A stretch of 64,000 nt of DNA from a virus (Duplodnaviria > Caudoviricetes). Of the stretch, positions 28,769-51,509 are shown in pieces; positions within the stretch are counted from its first letter, which is position 1, and the number at the start of each line of letters is the position of its first letter. The position numbers and the translations under genes were made by a program. The notes beneath the pieces were generated by a model. That model made no database searches, had not been told where the DNA came from, and was given only the letters and a program-made list of their open reading frames with translations. The stretch spans positions 123,244 to 187,243 of the IMG/VR virus record IMGVR_UViG_3300033067_001757. One strand, written 5' to 3'.

Positions 28769-29094
28769 GCACAGTAACAGTAAACGGACGAACATTCGTG
28801 CATAACGGAAGTATTTCAATATCCAATGGAAAGATTATCGTTAATGGTAAAGATGTCACACCGGAATCTAAAAATATAAACATCATTGTAAACGGGAATA
28901 TTGATCACATAAAGGTTGATAGTTGTGATCATGTAACTGTTACCGGCAACGCAGAAAGCGTTGAAACAATGAGTGGTGACATCAATATCAACGGTGATGT
29001 GAATGGATTTGTAAAATCTATGTCCGGAGATATAAAATGTGGTCATGTATCCGGTAAAGTTTCTACAATGTCTGGAGACATAAAGAATAAATAA
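28765..29094 (+). CDS. DUF4097-like beta-strand repeat protein
   Basis: Repeated V.TMSGDI units. Confidence 0.7.
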   Translation: MSTVTVNGRTFVHNGSISISNGKIIVNGKDVTPESKNINIIVNGNIDHIKVDSCDHVTVTGNAESVETMSGDININGDVNGFVKSMSGDIKCGHVSGKVSTMSGDIKNK

Positions 29095-29095
29095 T

Positions 29096-29458
29096 ATGAC
29101 GTTCAACTCAATAATAAGTTACTTACCATCAAGCCGGGATAGAACATACGTTACGATAGATCAAATCGAGGAAGAGTTTCCAGATTTCATCGACAAAATA
29201 GAAGAAATTTATACCGATTCAGATTATAGTTCAGTTTCTAAGAATATCGCCAAAGGAGTATGTAGTCAGCTTGAAATATGGGAGAATATATCCTGGAAAC
29301 AGTTCGATATGATCATGAATATGTATAAGACTCCACCGAGAAGGAATAAAAGAGGTTCAAGTTCTAATAGATCGTTTGGGTGGGATTTCCCTACTGGCAA
29401 TGAAAAAATGGAAGATTATGTTCATTTCGGTATAAACTTTAAAGGATTGAGTATATAA
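29096..29458 (+). CDS. hypothetical protein
   Basis: 120-aa ORF. Confidence 0.65.
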   Translation: MTFNSIISYLPSSRDRTYVTIDQIEEEFPDFIDKIEEIYTDSDYSSVSKNIAKGVCSQLEIWENISWKQFDMIMNMYKTPPRRNKRGSSSNRSFGWDFPTGNEKMEDYVHFGINFKGLSI

Positions 29459-29469
29459 TCGACCTGATT

Positions 29470-29640
29470 ATGAGCAGAAAAGATGATGTTTTCTTTAGTT
29501 TTCCATCAATAATATTCACAAAATGTACCAATACGCTCACAAAAGAGGCTAAAAAGACCTTCAAATGTGAGTGGGATAAGTACTATACCGTAACATTTGC
29601 CTGGCTGTTTTGGGCCTATACAATAGAATATACACCGTAA
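29470..29640 (+). CDS. small hypothetical protein (56 aa, not in ORF track)
   Basis: MSRKDDVFFSFPSII...FAWLFWAYTIEYTP fills the gap between neighbours. Confidence 0.55.
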   Translation: MSRKDDVFFSFPSIIFTKCTNTLTKEAKKTFKCEWDKYYTVTFAWLFWAYTIEYTP

Positions 29641-29650
29641 AACTTTTAAT

Positions 29651-29887
29651 ATGTCACCAATATTTTTTTATTTTCTCGGATTTATAATTTCTTATGTCTC
29701 AGGTAAGCTATTAAGAAATTACACTAAAGAAAACGAATGGGAAGATGTACGTATGACGCTTTTATTAGCAATATTCAGTTGGGTAGGATTTATATGTATT
29801 TTACTAGCATCGATCGCGATACTGTTACAACCTGTATTAAAAAAGTTCCGCATTAAATATTCAGATAAACCACCAAAATGGTTATGA
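29651..29887 (+). CDS. small membrane protein
   Basis: Two hydrophobic helices, C-terminal KPPKWL. Confidence 0.65.
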   Translation: MSPIFFYFLGFIISYVSGKLLRNYTKENEWEDVRMTLLLAIFSWVGFICILLASIAILLQPVLKKFRIKYSDKPPKWL

Positions 29888-30297
29888 CCAACGCCCACCT
29901 ATTTCTCGATGATGTTCGTATGCCAATTGATGTAGAGAAGTACATTAATCCGGTAGAATTAAGACCACTTTACCGGTTAAAGCCGTGGATTATAGTAAGA
30001 AACTATCGGGAATTTACTGAATATATAAAAAAGAATGGTCTACCAGGTACTATTTCATTTGACCACGACCTGGGCGAAGATGAGGCTGAAAGTATGGTTT
30101 CTGAAGGTATATCCAAGAGAAAGGCCCGGGAACACAAGAAAACAGTTAAATCCGGATACGATTGTGCTAAGTGGCTTGTAGATTATGTTATTGAGAACGA
30201 ATTAATACTACCAGACATCTTATGTCATAGTATGAATCCGGTAGGTAAGGAAAATATCCTGATGTTATTTGAAAATTATAAACGATTTATGATATGA
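29878..30297 (+). CDS. cyclic-phosphate-processing receiver (cREC) domain protein
   Basis: LFLDDVR, ISFDHDLG, GYDCAKWL, HSMNPVG. Confidence 0.8.
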   Translation: MVMTNAHLFLDDVRMPIDVEKYINPVELRPLYRLKPWIIVRNYREFTEYIKKNGLPGTISFDHDLGEDEAESMVSEGISKRKAREHKKTVKSGYDCAKWLVDYVIENELILPDILCHSMNPVGKENILMLFENYKRFMI

Positions 30298-30326
30298 CTG
30301 TCCGTTTTTAAGATCCAATACCCAGG

Positions 30327-30357
30327 AGCCCGGTGGAACATTCCATCCGGGTTTTTT
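30327..30357 (+). terminator. intrinsic terminator between convergent genes
   Basis: CCCGG-TGGAA / TTCCA-T-CCGGG stem followed by T6. Confidence 0.75.
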
Positions 30358-30358
30358 A

Positions 30359-30742
30359 CTACCACGCCCTGCAGGACCAGTATCTTGCTTTAGTACGCGG
30401 TCCCGGATCTTTACAGTTATGTCTGGCCCTGAATGAAGCTCTTCGTTCCGGGTTGTTCTTTTTAATATTCATTCCCTTCTGACCAAAGTTGACTTTTACA
30501 ACTTTACCAGTAGCAGGGTTCTTTACATATACCTTAAACTTTTTTACATCACCCTGCATACGTTTACCTAATTGTACAGTATGTCCCTGGTATTCAGCTT
30601 CCAACAATGACGGATCAGTAATTTCTTTTAATTGTTGCTTATACTCCTTTATAAACTCGGTGAACTCTTGTATGTCATAAATATTTTCAAGATCATATTC
30701 ATCGATACCGTCATCCTTTTTGTTCGAACATTGGCTACTCAT
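30359..30742 (-). CDS. conserved basic phage protein (KKFKVYVK..VNFG..SFRARH.C..KARYWSC family)
   Basis: Motif set recalled from T4-like and cyanophage genomes; start at MSSQC follows ATATTTAT. Confidence 0.75.
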   Translation of the reverse strand: MSSQCSNKKDDGIDEYDLENIYDIQEFTEFIKEYKQQLKEITDPSLLEAEYQGHTVQLGKRMQGDVKKFKVYVKNPATGKVVKVNFGQKGMNIKKNNPERRASFRARHNCKDPGPRTKARYWSCRAW

Positions 30743-31342
30743 ATTAATATTTTGTATATAAATATGGCTGGTGTCCGTTACGGACTTTAGTTGTATATAC
30801 AAATATCTATTAGACTGGTATGATCTGCAGGGTTTTCTTCTACACTAATTTTGCCGGACAGAATTTTTTCTGAAAACAGAATTTCCATTCAGAGAACTTC
30901 TGTACACGAATTTACCCCATTTTAAGCCCCATACGGGCCTGTTTTTGTTTATTGATATGAATGTACCGGAGCTTTGCTTTGCGGTCAATGGTGCCGGGAT
31001 AACGCTTAAATGGACACAATGTCCATATTATTGTCCAGGTACGGTGATGGAAATATCTGTCATTAAGTCGTTACTTTAGGGTTAATGAATGAATAAGCCG
31101 TCATTATCTAACTTATTGATATATACGTATATATTGAAGGGTTACCGTGGAACGGGCGGTGAAGTGTAAACGAACCTGCCCACTCCCCTACCTGGTTAAA
31201 GTTTTGTTAAGGTACAATAATTAACACTTTTTTTAGAAATAAAATAGTAAAGAAAAATTTTAACATTTCATTTGAAAATAATTTATTATAGAACTTTTGA
31301 GATACCTAGTAAGATTTCATTAACAAATTTTTAACAGTTAAC

Positions 31343-31375
31343 TTTGTTCGGCTATCAAATAAAGTTCTACATTGC
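31343..31375 (+). promoter_or_regulatory. host-type early promoter (TTTG-N21-TACATTGC)
   Basis: -33 TTTG and near-consensus -7 element preceded by AAGTTC; heads the plus-strand early region. Confidence 0.55.
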
Positions 31376-31396
31376 ACTATCAAATTTTATTAACCG

Positions 31397-31426
31397 TTCT
31401 GCATCTCACAACAATAAGATGCAGGA
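31397..31426 (+). promoter_or_regulatory. 5' UTR hairpin with CACAACAAUA loop
   Basis: 10-bp stem TTCTGCATCT/AGATGCAGGA; loop matches the three downstream hairpins. Confidence 0.75.
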
Positions 31427-31441
31427 CACAAAACAAAAGTT

Positions 31442-32023
31442 ATGAAACAGGAAATTAAAGTTAGGTTGGTAGGTAAAAATGTAAAGCAGCATACCATAAC
31501 TAACGAAGGTTCAGTAAGTGTAAACAGGCAGGTTACTGATATTGCAGTTCTGCTTTGTTTAGATGCAACCCAATTTGAAAAGCTGCCAAAAGTTGAGGTT
31601 GTTTACAATGGTGTAACACATTCTTTCAACATGGTGAAAGATGCCGCAAAATTATCTTTCACTTTGTTGCTCGAAATTGGTAAGGTATTGTTTTCTAATG
31701 TTACCACTTTTGAAGGTCGTACGGAACAAAGCAGTAACCCTATTGCATTAGCAATACTTGTACCTTTTAAGTACAAGGAAAAAACCGTGTCATATGAAGC
31801 ATACACTAAAGCCATTAGTGTAAAGTTTTCCGGTCTCAAAACATTGGTTAAACACGAGCAAAACAAAGCAGCTTTTTTAGATACTGCTTTTAATGCTACT
31901 GTTTCTATTGCCAAAATTGCGAATAGCGAATATTCAAAAATCGCTAAAGGTGCAAAGGAAATTGCCGCTAAAGGTTATGCTGCTGCCATTGCTGCAAACC
32001 GTTTGCCCGTTGCTACTGCTTAA
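31442..32023 (+). CDS. orphan basic protein, candidate RNA-binding regulator
   Basis: 193 aa, Lys/Ala-rich C-terminus, first gene after the early promoter, flanked by conserved-loop hairpins; the function is inference. Confidence 0.75.
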   Translation: MKQEIKVRLVGKNVKQHTITNEGSVSVNRQVTDIAVLLCLDATQFEKLPKVEVVYNGVTHSFNMVKDAAKLSFTLLLEIGKVLFSNVTTFEGRTEQSSNPIALAILVPFKYKEKTVSYEAYTKAISVKFSGLKTLVKHEQNKAAFLDTAFNATVSIAKIANSEYSKIAKGAKEIAAKGYAAAIAANRLPVATA

Positions 32024-32031
32024 TTTTTGAT

Positions 32032-32206
32032 AGGGTTACAATACAACAATTTTGCAGCCCTTAATTAGTTATTAGTTAGCGTTTATTGTGAGTATGGTTT
32101 GAACTTGTGCAATACAACAATTTTGCAGCAAGTTGTTAAACGCTCTTTTACATAGTTTGTTTATAGTCTAATTTAAGATGCCGCAATACAACAATTTTGC
32201 AATGGC
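32032..32206 (+). repeat. three-copy hairpin array, core CAATACAACAATTTTGCA
   Basis: Exact 18-mers at 32039, 32110 and 32184, each closed by a different outer stem. Confidence 0.9.
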
Positions 32207-32224
32207 TTTATACTGTTTACATTG

Positions 32225-33225
32225 TACATATCTTTTACAAAAATTAAAGGTAAAGTACACTAAAAAATGTTTATAGTAAACTCGAAAGTAAACGATAACA
32301 AACAGGTATGTACTAAATTTGTGCAGCTATCTTTTTTGAATAGCGGGAGCAATACATTAAAACAATTATGTACCCGTGAAAAAAATTTAAACTACTGCGT
32401 AAACTAAACTTCCGTTCCTTCATGTTTCTACATGGTGTATCATATAACGGATTGATGTTTACAAAGTGATAAGGTTTAAATCGTGTGTATCCCAGTACGC
32501 ACATTCATAAAACATTAGCTTAATCAATAACAGCACAAACGTACATAAGGCCATCGTGATACTGTTGATCAGGTAAGAGGTATGTCTATACCCAGCCAGG
32601 GATACGTGTGTACATTCGTGTGCCCATACTCCCACTTGTGCTACCTGGAACGGTCATAAAGCATCTACCTTAAATGGTTGGTTTTGTAGTTTGATGCTTA
32701 CACGTTTACATGAAAACTACACCAAAGCGGGTACGCATACGCTGAGGATACCGGATGAGTCCGGATAATATATGCCCATGAACGAATTGTTATACTTAGC
32801 ATTCGCATGGATCAAAACTATAAGTAAGTACATTCACTACCGGAACCATGTACAGTACACCAGGTTAACCGGTTCAACGTCCGCGGCATCATGTGCTTCG
32901 GCGCTTTTGTTATATCCCAACATAAATGACAACCATCGTTAAGCAGTATAATTCACAGGCAATTGCGTAAGCCCTGTACTTAAAATCGTAAGTCTTAGCA
33001 CATACAGTCATACTCGGGATCAATGGGCAACGACGTAGCTATCCCCCTCACGGGTTTGGTTAGGAGCTTCGTATGGCTCCCCCATTGCGGCAGGTAAGGT
33101 AAACATGTGTAAACCGGTAACCAACCCGTTACATGCATAAGCCCTTACCAAATCAACCGGTTGCGTAATACCTGTCCCTTCATAGACAGTTAGATAGACT
33201 CGCAGTCTGTCCCGGTTGCTAACTA
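32225..33225 (+). ncRNA. candidate large structured non-coding RNA (about 1 kb, boundaries approximate)
   Basis: No credible ORF; many nested and long-range helices with G-U pairs, UUCG loops and an H-type pseudoknot. Confidence 0.6.
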
Positions 33226-33237
33226 AAAATTAAGGTT

Positions 33238-33360
33238 ATGCGACATCTAAAACTGTACAGGCAAATCAGGTTATGGGAACTGAAGATAACTAAAATGAGT
33301 TCTCTGCATAAGGTAATGTGGAAAGCTGAATGGTTTAAGCACAGGCAAGCGATACAGTAA
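33238..33360 (+). CDS. 40-aa basic peptide (not in ORF track)
   Basis: TAAGGTT-ATG start; MRHLKLYRQIRLWELKITKMSSLHKVMWKAEWFKHRQAIQ. Confidence 0.55.
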   Translation: MRHLKLYRQIRLWELKITKMSSLHKVMWKAEWFKHRQAIQ

Positions 33361-33445
33361 GTTATCTTCCTTTCAGACGTACATACATATCAAAACAACA
33401 TTCACGGGCTTAAATCGCCTTAAAATCGCTAAATCAATAAAGGTC

Positions 33446-33568
33446 ATGTACATTCTCATAGTTCCGGTACTGGCAGCCATTAAGATTATACTTGTTATCC
33501 TGCAGAATCCAAAGGTAGATTTGGAATCAGGTAATTATGATGTTCTGCCAAGTAATATACCGGTGTAA
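33446..33568 (+). CDS. 40-aa membrane peptide (not in ORF track)
   Basis: AATAAAGGTC-ATG start; MYILIVPVLAAIKIILVILQNPK... Confidence 0.6.
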   Translation: MYILIVPVLAAIKIILVILQNPKVDLESGNYDVLPSNIPV

Positions 33569-33588
33569 TCAAAAAACAAATAAAGGTC

Positions 33589-33594
33589 ATGTAA
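33589..33594 (+). promoter_or_regulatory. start-stop (ATG-TAA) minigene
   Basis: Perfect AATAAAGGTC start motif, then ATG TAA overlapping the terminator stem. Confidence 0.6.
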
Positions 33595-33626
33595 GGAATG
33601 TTGGCTTAGGTTGGCATTCCTTTTTT
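33593..33626 (+). terminator. intrinsic terminator
   Basis: AAGGAATGTTGGC-TTAG-GTTGGCATTCCTT followed by a T tract. Confidence 0.75.
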
Positions 33627-33679
33627 ACTTCACATTCAATCACTTCAATAAAACGCCCGTATCCGGGTAAAGAAAGGTC

Positions 33680-33943
33680 ATGGAAAGAGCAATTGTAATC
33701 CCGATGCCAACAGTACTTGGCAAGATAGACTTAAACGCAATCAACCAGCGTGAGCAACAGGCTAAGAAGGCCAAACGTGTGTTCATTAATGAATCTCGTG
33801 AGAAGGCTGAGGAATTTAATGAAACCTTGGACCGAAAGAAGAAACAGGAAAACCTTCACAAAGACCTGCAAAGAGCTTTCTCACGCAGACCTGGTGCCAC
33901 TGTTACAGATGATCATGGCCATCTGGTGATCAAATTAAGTTAA
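33680..33943 (+). CDS. hypothetical protein
   Basis: 87 aa, VLGKIDL motif, AAAGGTC-ATG start. Confidence 0.7.
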   Translation: MERAIVIPMPTVLGKIDLNAINQREQQAKKAKRVFINESREKAEEFNETLDRKKKQENLHKDLQRAFSRRPGATVTDDHGHLVIKLS

Positions 33944-34064
33944 ATGCCCTACAGGGCACTTTTCCACTCGGTCCCGGTACTACTCGTAACTGATATAGGC
34001 CGGGGCTATTCTATTAAACGTCCGTTACGGACAATTAAAACGCCCTTATAGGGCAATTAAGATC

Positions 34065-34475
34065 ATGGAAACAGGTACAGTATTAAACCAGCAAGAGTTA
34101 TTCCTACTCGTTAAACAGGAAGCTGAGAACTTAAAAGTACATGCTACACAGGAAGAGCTGTCTAATTTGAGTTTTGATAAATTGGGTCCTTTAAACGCTG
34201 ATGCATGTGTATACGGATTGATGACTGGTTGTTGTTACAGTACAAGAGCTACTGAACTTATAAACTTATGCTGCGAAAGAGTTATAAGTGATGATTCTGG
34301 TGTAAGCAGCAGCAGAGTATTGAATAGATCACCAAAGACATCAATCAGAACGTCATACTGGTCACCAATAGAAGTTTACATTGCTCAGGAAGGACAGTTG
34401 ATTAGTAACAACAAATCCCTCATATCCTTTCTTAAGTCCGAAACAGATACTCTAACCTTTAACGAAGCTATATGA
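34065..34475 (+). CDS. hypothetical protein
   Basis: 136 aa, CVYG.MTG.C motif. Confidence 0.7.
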   Translation: METGTVLNQQELFLLVKQEAENLKVHATQEELSNLSFDKLGPLNADACVYGLMTGCCYSTRATELINLCCERVISDDSGVSSSRVLNRSPKTSIRTSYWSPIEVYIAQEGQLISNNKSLISFLKSETDTLTFNEAI

Positions 34476-34627
34476 ACCACATCACACTCCTTCAGGCACA
34501 AAACAGGATCAACTACTTAAACGGTATAATCTCCATTCTTGGTACCCGGTTGGCTCATAAATACGTATTGGAACTTGACAACCTGGTTGCATACATCGAA
34601 ACACTTAACTGGGAGCTTGGCTATTGA
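34472..34627 (+). CDS. small hypothetical protein (51 aa, not in ORF track)
   Basis: ATGA overlap with the previous gene. Confidence 0.5.
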   Translation: MNHITLLQAQNRINYLNGIISILGTRLAHKYVLELDNLVAYIETLNWELGY

Positions 34628-34667
34628 AGAAATCCGGTCAGTATTCGAAGCAAACCGTAGGATGGTT

Positions 34668-34698
34668 GAGGGCATTAGCTTTCAGCCCTCTTGTTTTT
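34668..34698 (+). terminator. probable intrinsic terminator
   Basis: GAGGGC...GCCCTC followed by TTGTTTTT. Confidence 0.5.
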
Positions 34699-35112
34699 CG
34701 GTAAAAAAGCATTAATGAAGCGTTTTGGTATTAACATTTCATTAGCACTGTTTTATTTGTTAATATATATCCAATTTTTATGGATTTATTTGGTGGTTTG
34801 CACGGGAGGGGCAGCTTCCCTCCCATCCGGTCGGTCGCACCCTACGGGGTATGTTATGATTTGTAGACCTGTTATTCCATAAATGTTATTTGTATATACA
34901 AATGTTTCCCACTTTTTACCACAAAATCCCACATAGGTATGGTTTATAGTATGTTTGTATATACAAATATAATAGTTCTTCAACATTTCGTACACACTCG
35001 TTAGCATCGTTCCAACAAGTTCAGAATAATATTTGTTTAGCCCCGGCTCCCGATGCTCCGGGACATATCACCTTATTACACTCACCTTTTAAATACCCGT
35101 AATGGGATTTCA

Positions 35113-35316
35113 ATGAATCACTTTGAACATAAAATGTATACTTCCCTTCGCAGTCAGGGTATTGAACAGGAAATTGCCGCTAAGTCATCTTCTTTATTGT
35201 TGGCAGTATTGGCAAATGTTGCTATGATCAGGGAAGATGGGAAGCCTTGTGTGTTTATTGGTATCTCGGATGTAGATATTGAAAAGATAATTAAGGCTTT
35301 ACAATCTTTAAAATAA
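35113..35316 (+). CDS. hypothetical protein
   Basis: Start taken at MNHFE. Confidence 0.5.
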   Translation: MNHFEHKMYTSLRSQGIEQEIAAKSSSLLLAVLANVAMIREDGKPCVFIGISDVDIEKIIKALQSLK

Positions 35317-35323
35317 TCTCAGT

Positions 35324-35656
35324 ATGCAAGAGATACATTCATATGATTGCAGTAAGCAATGTACAGGATTATACATTGATGTGAACGGAACAGGCAGAGA
35401 ATACAATGTATTACTTTTAGTACAGGCTTATTCCAAACGTAGCCGGAAAGGAAAGATTGTTGTATCTACCAAACCATTCCCGGATTGTATTAAAGTAAAA
35501 CGTGAAGATTGGGAAAGAGATATAAAGCATTATAATATCGTTGATTGGAATAATTATATCTGGCCGGTTTTTAATACTGCTCATATCACTCTTGCTTTTA
35601 CCAGGTTTAAAAATAAGAAATTGTATATCCGTGTAATTCCTAATACTAAATCGTAA
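35324..35656 (+). CDS. hypothetical protein
   Basis: 110-aa ORF. Confidence 0.6.
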   Translation: MQEIHSYDCSKQCTGLYIDVNGTGREYNVLLLVQAYSKRSRKGKIVVSTKPFPDCIKVKREDWERDIKHYNIVDWNNYIWPVFNTAHITLAFTRFKNKKLYIRVIPNTKS

Positions 35657-36039
35657 TGAATATGCAAATCATAACTCTTTCCAATGGTAAACGTGTTGCT
35701 AACTTCAGCAGCCCACATCCTTTTGTTTTTACAGATGGTAGTATTTTACCAGGTGTATCAGAACGAGATGCTTTGTGGTATGCTGTTACCTTTATAGAAG
35801 ACGATCTTGGTAATGGTGATATCAAACTTACATTTGATATTACAGATGCTATATGGAATCTTATGATCAGATGGAATGAAGCGTGGGGAGCTAAAGAAGT
35901 CGATGTTGTATTCTGTCCTTTACCGATGATCATCGCTTTACATAATTGGGGATACAATGTCCGTAACAGTCCTTTCAGATGTATCCGTATTGAAGATCGT
36001 ATTAATAAACTCGTTTCAATTGATAAACAAACACTTTAA
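35656..36039 (+). CDS. conserved hypothetical phage protein
   Basis: LSNG.RV.NFSSPHPF.F.DG. Confidence 0.7.
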   Translation: MNMQIITLSNGKRVANFSSPHPFVFTDGSILPGVSERDALWYAVTFIEDDLGNGDIKLTFDITDAIWNLMIRWNEAWGAKEVDVVFCPLPMIIALHNWGYNVRNSPFRCIRIEDRINKLVSIDKQTL

Positions 36040-39376: not shown

Positions 39377-39401
39377 TTTTTGTTTCGGGTTATAAGGGAT
39401 G

Positions 39402-39435
39402 AAGTCTCGGTGACGTATGTTGCCGGGGCTTTTTT
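39402..39435 (+). terminator. intrinsic terminator
   Basis: AAGTCTCGGTGAC-GTAT-GTTGCCGGGGCTT followed by a T tract. Confidence 0.7.
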
Positions 39436-51335: not shown

Positions 51336-51509
51336 ATGAACAATCCAACAGCAGAAAAGATGGATGTTATTATCAACGTCCAGATGCTTCAAGAAAAGAT
51401 ATATGGTCAGGTTGAGGACTTTGAAATACTGAATTCATATGACGTTGAAGAACTTAGGAAAATAGTAGACGACCTCTTACCTTTATACAATAAAAAAGTA
51501 ACACAATGA
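51336..51509 (+). CDS. small hypothetical protein
   Basis: Start taken at MNNPT. Confidence 0.55.
   Translation: MNNPTAEKMDVIINVQMLQEKIYGQVEDFEILNSYDVEELRKIVDDLLPLYNKKVTQ

Follow-up and report, generated by a model that had tools for sequence, protein, structure and literature searches.

A start codon running straight into a stop codon at an intrinsic terminator of T4-like phages: possible ribosome-sensing attenuator or scar of module shuffling

Why a phage would place a complete translation start signal directly in front of a stop codon, and that stop codon on the foot of a transcription terminator, is the question raised by a short intergenic site in the window analyzed here. The window is a stretch of 64,000 nucleotides and makes up the final 64 kb of an IMG/VR virus record 187 kb long. 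A start codon followed by a stop makes no product, and any role of such a start-stop must therefore come from ribosome occupancy. That the unit is an orphan, complete copy of the phage's start cassette with an immediate stop is well supported, as is its position, wedged between a conserved 40-codon membrane-peptide gene and the plus-strand intrinsic terminator of that gene. What the unit is for, if anything, has to be argued from its anatomy, its start context, and its fate in related phages.

The site and its neighborhood

How the site is built can be read directly. An exact copy of the canonical start motif of the phage, AATAAAGGTC, lies on the plus strand at 33579-33588, and directly 3' of it stands the start-stop minigene ATG TAA (33589-33594; ATG at 33589-33591, TAA at 33592-33594), exactly as the original prediction had read it. 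The 13-bp stem claimed with it, containing four G-U pairs and opening on the last two bases of the stop codon, is likewise confirmed by the sequence. Both a terminator scan and folding report this hairpin at 33593-33622 (5' arm, 33593-33605; loop TTAG, 33606-33609; 3' arm, 33610-33622), such that the last two bases of the TAA are the first bases of the 5' arm. From the outside inward, the stem consists of eight Watson-Crick pairs, four consecutive G-U pairs, and a closing C-G pair. A run of six Ts (33621-33626), the first two of which are the last two bases of the stem, completes the terminator and is invariant in all relatives.

The hairpin is far more stable than expected from its composition, folding at -15 kcal/mol in RNAfold compared to -6.2 +/- 2.3 kcal/mol for shuffled sequences, none of which (0 of 200) folded as well. 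The complementary strand reaches only -7.5 kcal/mol with eight pairs, as the G-U pairs become C-A mismatches there, and we conclude that the hairpin is an RNA element of the plus strand. A wider fold around the terminator is no better than shuffles (z = -1.1). Moreover, folding of 33540-33635 yields the terminator hairpin only, with no antiterminator helix of the trp type. No sense codon follows the ATG, and hence the one-codon open reading frame (ORF) contains no regulatory (sensing) codons.

The site sits in a gene-poor, ORFan-rich stretch. In order, the stretch carries a 193-aa gene, approximately 1.4 kb without ORFs that is a putative large noncoding RNA, two 40-codon ORFs, the start-stop with its hairpin, and an 87-aa gene, and no Pfam or PHROG family of known function was matched by the genes from the 193-aa through the 87-aa gene. 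The first 40-codon ORF (33238-33360; AAGGTTATG start) directly follows the noncoding RNA region. The second (33446-33568, plus strand; from the ORF list) has an exact start motif at its start and encodes a small hydrophobic peptide of the membrane type without a Pfam or PHROG family match. Conservation of this peptide extends to eight related haplotypes and a distant relative (L249), and therefore the ORF is probably translated. Its TAA ends 20 nt before the ATG of the start-stop and 24 nt before the stem, and the A-rich spacer that leads from this stop to the motif (33569-33578) is hypervariable in relatives, where it is replaced, shortened, or deleted.

On the other side of the intrinsic terminator (-15 kcal/mol plus T-run), which thereby sits between the 40-codon ORF and the 87-aa gene, the T-run is followed by a variable spacer (33627-33679). 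The spacer contains a small CCCG-tetraloop-CGGG hairpin (33655-33668), and at its end another motif-like start context (33673-33679) serves the 87-aa gene. That gene (33680-33943, plus strand) has no assigned function, is the first gene behind the terminator, and served as the query with which relatives were found. An overlapping 53-codon ORF (33537-33698) was rejected as a gene, as its frame is broken in relatives by a 1-nt indel in the stop codon and by spacers of 41, 43, 53, and 60 nt.

Several other features of the neighborhood were observed. Small G+C-rich stem-loops with 4 to 6 bp and loops of 3 to 4 nt are found at 30773-30785, 34018-34032, and 34041-34055 in addition to the one at 33655-33668, and the types CCCG/CGGG, GTCCG/CGGAC, and GCCC/GGGC recur in intergenic spacers of the window and of its relatives. 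In the distant relative L249, one small G+C-rich stem-loop occupies the place of the big terminator. Matches to the Bacteroidota -7 element, TAnnTTTG, precede the 193-aa gene (31339), the start of the noncoding RNA region (32314), and the gene at 35053 (34950). Finally, a wastewater metatranscriptome contig of 1,049 nt, which corresponds to the noncoding RNA region of a related strain and may be DNA carry-over, is approximately 95% identical to 31977-33034. The RNA-library contigs compared with the window did not span the start-stop.

What kind of host the phage infects is indicated by two features. The baseplate wedge protein is 44 to 45% identical to that of Flavobacterium phage vB_FspM_immuto and that of one Microcystis phage, and gene starts genome-wide have A-rich upstream regions that lack Shine-Dalgarno sequences. 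In Bacteroidota, which do without Shine-Dalgarno sequences, starts are defined by an A-rich, unstructured context, and stray AUGs near starts are avoided (PMC6847099). Based on the baseplate match and on starts typical of Bacteroidota, a host of the Flavobacterium type is probable.

The start motif across the genome

Whether the start-stop looks like a genuine start was judged against the other starts of the phage. The motif AATAAAGGTC occurs 14 times in the window, always on the plus strand, where 0.26 copies are expected. In the whole genome there are 26 copies of AAAGGTCATG, or approximately 36 if the T variant is included, nearly all of them directly before real ORFs. An upstream ORF ends 5 to 35 nt before the start at 23 of 40 motif-type starts, and thus the motif is the usual signal at cistron junctions. 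When scored with a position weight matrix built from 228 long ORFs, the context of the start-stop reaches 7.4 bits, at approximately the 93rd percentile of real gene starts.

The juxtaposition might have arisen by chance, since ATG-stop pairs are common and number 430 in the 187-kb genome. This pair, however, follows an exact 10-nt motif, is conserved in relatives, and has the top start context of all 430, with the runner-up scoring 4.5. Moreover, among 24 intergenic terminator-like hairpins, only that of the start-stop has a strong start within 14 nt of its foot, and the upstream stop lies 14 to 46 nt from the stem at the other plus-strand terminators of the window. We give coincidence next to no credence, and chance alone is excluded as the origin of the arrangement. 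We note that the terminator at 39402 (39399-39431) is overlapped by a four-codon ORF, ATG AAG TCT CGG TGA, the start context of which is in the 2nd percentile and which probably is there by chance.

Two further clusters of the motif were seen on the minus strand outside the window. At 76240-76300 of the genome, an exact motif right after a terminator-like hairpin leads a 5-codon mini-ORF, with 7 nt between its stop and the ATG of a real gene, and this mini-ORF may be an upstream ORF that loads ribosomes. At 51435-51500, three copies are packed into 60 nt; an 11-codon mini-ORF follows the first, no ATG follows the second, and a 78-aa gene begins at the third.

Alternatively, the motif might be read by RNA polymerase, as a compact promoter for leaderless transcripts that begin at the A of the ATG, and the orphan copy together with its hairpin would then be a gene for a hairpin RNA of approximately 40 nt. 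The motif always abuts an ATG, and its AATAAA part ends 5 nt before that codon, a spacing compatible with a -10-like element. The motif is unlike the TAnnTTTG element of Bacteroidota, however, and it is found 5 to 35 nt behind upstream stops inside long same-strand arrays. The GGTC between the AATAAA part and the ATG is as conserved as the A-rich part, the genome has a different repeated promoter-like motif, and most transcripts of F. johnsoniae are leadered (PMC6847099). Thus, we consider a promoter very improbable. A repeated motif around TATAAATA, in the context tgtaTATAAATAtca, was found 44 times on the plus strand and 16 times on the minus strand of the whole genome (e.g., at 30757-30775 of the window). 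Many of its copies lie amid minus-strand genes, and it probably is a promoter-like signal of the minus-strand (late) genes, read on the other strand.

Conservation and mosaicism in relatives

How the site has fared in related phages was determined in nine haplotypes. Searching with the 87-aa protein gave eight proteins that are 75 to 100% identical, with seven relatives at 75 to 89%, and a protein search with the 40-aa peptide gave one match. The contigs of the seven relatives and the one found through the peptide constitute eight further haplotypes, and the set compared here is the window plus L230, L232, L236, L240, L241, L242, L248, and L257. Contigs from three other studies (river, digester, and wastewater) are identical at the site but represent near-identical strains and contribute little further information.

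At the base of the terminator, all nine haplotypes retain a start codon together with a stop, in three forms. The window, L230, L232, and L242 have ATG TAA. In L236, L240, L248, and L257, one A is lost to give ATG TAG, and the last two bases of the stop still open the stem. L241 reads ATG TAC GGG TAA, followed by an unrelated 11-bp hairpin (-17 kcal/mol) with the stop inside its 5' arm. The stop immediately follows the ATG in eight of the nine, and the start with its immediate or near-immediate stop has outlasted a change of stop codon, a replacement of the hairpin, and replacements of the spacers. Conservation of ATG-TAA in related phages, a check proposed with the original prediction, is thus borne out for the start and the stop, though the exact ATG TAA is present in only four of nine haplotypes and a distant relative is without the element. 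A full gene at this start in related phages, which the original prediction had named as evidence against its reading, is absent from all nine haplotypes and from the distant relative.

The conservation is sharply bounded. Mean pairwise identity is 0.82 for the small gene and 0.63 for the upstream spacer, rises to 0.94 for GGTC-ATG-stop and 0.96 for the hairpin plus T-run, and is 0.75 for the downstream spacer and 0.83 for the start of the 87-aa gene. The ATG therefore lies within the most conserved block, 45 nt at 0.94 to 0.96 identity compared to 0.82 in flanking coding DNA. Because only three changes are seen in this block, retention of the ATG cannot be separated statistically from hitchhiking with the hairpin. 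The distance from the stop of the small gene to the ATG varies from 9 nt in L248, where the stop abuts the motif, up to 20 nt. The only piece common to all nine haplotypes is the 9-mer GGTCATGTA, the left flank of which is replaced in L236, L240, and L248 and the right flank in L241. Start contexts in the relatives fall between the 57th and 93rd percentiles of real starts except in L240, where the motif has lost its A-rich part and the score is at the 6th percentile.

Pairing survives each of the two substitutions seen in the hairpin, one being U.G to U-A in L230 and L236 and the other C-G to U.G in L257. The primary sequence is conserved as well, including the loop and the G-U run, at 0.96 compared to 0.82 to 0.83 in flanking coding DNA. 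A simple terminator would not usually be conserved to this degree, which may point to recognition of the sequence itself. Perhaps, then, the motif with its AUG, or the hairpin, is bound or cut by an RNA-binding factor of the phage. This factor could be a translational repressor, a nuclease, or an antiterminator, for which the orphan copy would serve as a decoy or loading site. A second unit of the same design would fit such recognition. It is found in L232 (2911-2960), L236 (2990-3040), and L242 (2556-2605), at the left edge of an insertion of approximately 125 nt in the large noncoding RNA, and consists of the motif (T or C variant) plus ATG TAA with an AACCGG/CCGGTT hairpin 6 nt later. The insertion is absent from the window, L230, and L248, and L232 and L236, at a local divergence of approximately 13%, do not conserve the second start-stop to a significant degree. 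No candidate protein was found, however; the genome encodes no homologue of the RegA-type repressor (PF01818), and no Rfam family matched at 29000-36000. Moreover, L241 had its hairpin swapped for an unrelated one while the start and the stop stayed. We regard a binding or processing site as unlikely.

The region around the site is hyperplastic. Spacer versions, and the genes between the noncoding RNA and the small gene, vary among haplotypes, and the swapped modules break at the T-run and at start motifs. The spacer after the T-run exists in several versions, bounded by the T-run and the start motif of the next gene, and AAGGTCATG stands on both sides of the terminator module (33583-33591 and 33674-33682). 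Other copies of the motif are orphaned or decayed, including those of the 5- and 11-codon mini-ORFs in the genome and one without an ATG in L232. The position of the 40-codon ORF at 33238-33360 appears to be a swappable slot; the ORF is also present in L230, and L232, L236, L240, and L248 carry other small genes there.

The start-stop thus could be a scar of module shuffling, created when the terminator module was inserted or a gene body was lost, such that an orphan motif and ATG run into a stop. The motif and the terminator stem-loops would be recombination anchors, the hairpin an ordinary terminator of the small gene, and the start-stop useless. The breaks at the T-run and start motifs, the repeated AAGGTCATG, the orphan copies together with the second start-stop, the decayed motif of L240, and the absence of the whole module from the distant relative all agree with a scar, and comparable shuffling by composite terminator/promoter cassettes occurs in T4-type phages (PMC2839356, PMC4122927). 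These PeSL cassettes also resemble the site in having a conserved stem-loop within a hyperplastic, ORFan-rich stretch of a T4-like phage, and they may share with it indels and replacements that end at short regulatory repeats (PMC2839356, PMC4122927). They differ in that the repeated element here is a translation start motif rather than a promoter, and a promoter scan finds no sigma-70-type early promoter, as in the PeSL composite, at 33300-33700. A scar must also account for the stop that comes within 1 to 3 codons in two independent hairpin contexts, for which a base-composition estimate gives a rough chance of 0.01 to 0.05, and for the survival of the ATG, the loss of which would be the easier fix if an orphan start were harmful. 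Start and stop persist in nine of nine haplotypes despite independent replacement of both flanks and of the hairpin, and the supposed full gene is in no relative. We take a scar, which includes the remnant of a deleted gene offered as the alternative in the original prediction, to be a serious possibility, nearly as likely as the action of ribosomes considered below.

How widely the element is distributed was addressed by searches of several kinds. A profile search of 1.84 billion representative proteins added one cluster only, the more distant relative (L249 to L254), in which both the small gene (43 codons here) and the downstream gene are found. These genes are separated by T-rich sequence and a weak hairpin of 4 bp that lies 3 nt past the stop, with no start motif and no start-stop. 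Thus, a device at this position is dispensable for the gene order, and the element is either a lineage-specific gain or was lost. Cultured phages gave no match, by megablast of 32000-36000 or by tblastn of the 87-aa protein. In IMG/VR, the 87-aa gene found no relatives, a 136-aa gene found only one unrelated high-GC contig, and the cREC_REC gene found 80 loci, none with the region or the motif. A 16-mer of the motif plus ATGTAA matched 58 times in IMG/VR, always as chance in-frame coding sequence, and a pattern search for the small gene found nothing there. The hairpin pattern likewise found nothing in IMG/VR and only already known contigs among JGI/ENA metagenome contigs. The region is absent from contigs of the closest structural relatives (62 to 67% baseplate identity), where one 15-nt match is coding and due to chance, and no donor copy of either hairpin (the common one or that of L241) is present in the genome or the loci. 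The element belongs to a single small clade of uncultured T4-like phages, and all the members seen retain it; both statements are well supported.

Ribosome occupancy at the terminator foot

How might a start-stop influence the terminator on which it stands? The reading we rank first, plausible though short of probable, is that the 5' arm of the hairpin is masked by ribosomes that re-initiate once past the small gene and that read-through results. Since the motif usually comes 5 to 35 nt after the stop of the preceding ORF, a ribosome that has just completed the 40-codon gene would be expected to re-initiate 20 nt further on, at the start-stop. By geometry, when the ATG is in the P site, the stop in the A site overlaps the first bases of the stem, and a ribosome parked there would cover most of the 5' arm. 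Were the ribosome to arrive early, before the 3' arm and the U-run had been made, the hairpin could not close and transcription would continue into the 87-aa gene and beyond. Were translation lagging or absent, the hairpin would fold and the transcript would end. The stop of the small gene itself, 24 nt from the stem, would be too far away to interfere, whereas that of the start-stop overlaps the stem.

Structure at a start site hinders initiation by impeding 30S binding, and the folded hairpin, which begins 4 nt after the first base of the ATG, should block a fresh 30S subunit. The site thus would act only during transcription, through a ribosome that had loaded onto the RNA before the hairpin formed. 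In effect, the device would be a terminator that leaks, and the leak would depend on how closely ribosomes follow the polymerase. With neither sensing codons nor an antiterminator helix, it would work by direct occlusion and not as a switch of the trp type.

Earlier work supplies a physical basis. Moving a stop codon from 28 to 5 bp before the terminator tR2 reduced termination from approximately 90% to less than 10%, an effect that needs coupled translation, and a ribosome protects approximately 10 nt beyond its A site (PMC4824070). In E. coli, ribosomes bind at start-stops, with a mild effect on expression (10.1101/520783).

Other observations count against coupling between ribosome and terminator. 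The motif of L240 is decayed (6th percentile), the time window is short at approximately 35 nt of transcription, folding gives no alternative antiterminator structure, and later terminators are without such a device. Tight coupling of transcription and translation is not known from this host group. A functional device must account for L240 and for the distant relative. Thus, the translation-sensing attenuator of the original prediction survives in part; the geometry fits and the start-stop is kept in nine of nine haplotypes, but the context in L240 is poor and the distant relative is without the element. That the site gates all downstream genes, as was also proposed, is unsupported, because four more terminators (34658, 39402, 49231, and 58837) and the promoter-like TAnnTTTG box at 34950 lie downstream. 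A bypass like that of T4 gene 60, from the ATG of the start-stop to the ATG 91 nt on, was also considered and is unlikely, since no nascent peptide would exist, L241 has exchanged the hairpin, and a separate start context precedes the downstream gene.

Start-stop sites are known from E. coli, where they were found by Ribo-RET (Meydan et al.; 10.1101/520783), and the phage site is like them in joining a start with working context to an immediate stop. The same layout is seen in the viral and plant AUG-stop upstream ORFs cited there (10.1101/520783). The E. coli sites lie inside genes, are Shine-Dalgarno-like, and modulate translation of the host ORF by approximately 16% (10.1101/520783), whereas the phage site is intergenic, lacks a Shine-Dalgarno sequence, comes directly behind an ORF, and is fused to a terminator, with its ribosome binding being putative. 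We found no description in the literature of a start-stop fused to a terminator.

In attenuation of the pyrBI type, a translating ribosome directly prevents the attenuator hairpin, and the mechanism dispenses with an antiterminator helix. The phage site showed neither a U-rich pause nor a nucleotide-sensing feature. The same layout of ribosome and hairpin was studied by Li et al. in 2016, in whose system a ribosome within a few nucleotides of the 5' arm blocks folding and termination depends on the closeness of translation (PMC4824070). There and in pyrBI, the ribosome is on a normal or 44-codon ORF, whereas here it would be on a separate one-codon ORF, and the real ORF ends 24 nt short. The trp, his, leu, and ilv attenuators also combine a short ORF with an intrinsic terminator ahead of downstream genes and read out the position of the ribosome. 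The phage site has neither their regulatory codons nor their alternative helices (1:2, 2:3, and 3:4), and thus it would not sense a particular amino acid. The bar minigenes of lambda, too, are very short ORFs that act by engaging the translation machinery; they need a sense codon and act via peptidyl-tRNA drop-off. The phage unit, in contrast, is single, lacks a Shine-Dalgarno sequence, is one codon long, and has no sense codon after the ATG in eight of nine haplotypes.

If functional, the site would combine two known kinds of element, start-stops and ribosome-mediated attenuation, in a codon-free minimal form. We speculate, tentatively, that it may be the smallest ribosome-sensing attenuator. 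A productless one-codon ORF would relay the ribosome from an upstream minigene onto the foot of a terminator, read-through into the early gene block of the phage would report nothing but the pace of translation relative to transcription in a host without Shine-Dalgarno sequences, and with the second unit the arrangement would be a recurring device of the clade.

What the site means depends on which account holds. If it is a scar, it would be a clear example of a start motif and terminator stem-loops serving as joints for gene shuffling in T4-like phages. If ribosomes do mask the terminator, early-gene transcription would be tied to the translational capacity of the host with six coding bases. 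Start-stops, tested so far only inside E. coli genes, would be extended to the control of transcription and to non-Shine-Dalgarno hosts, and the site would offer a compact part for studying transcription-translation coupling in Bacteroidota.
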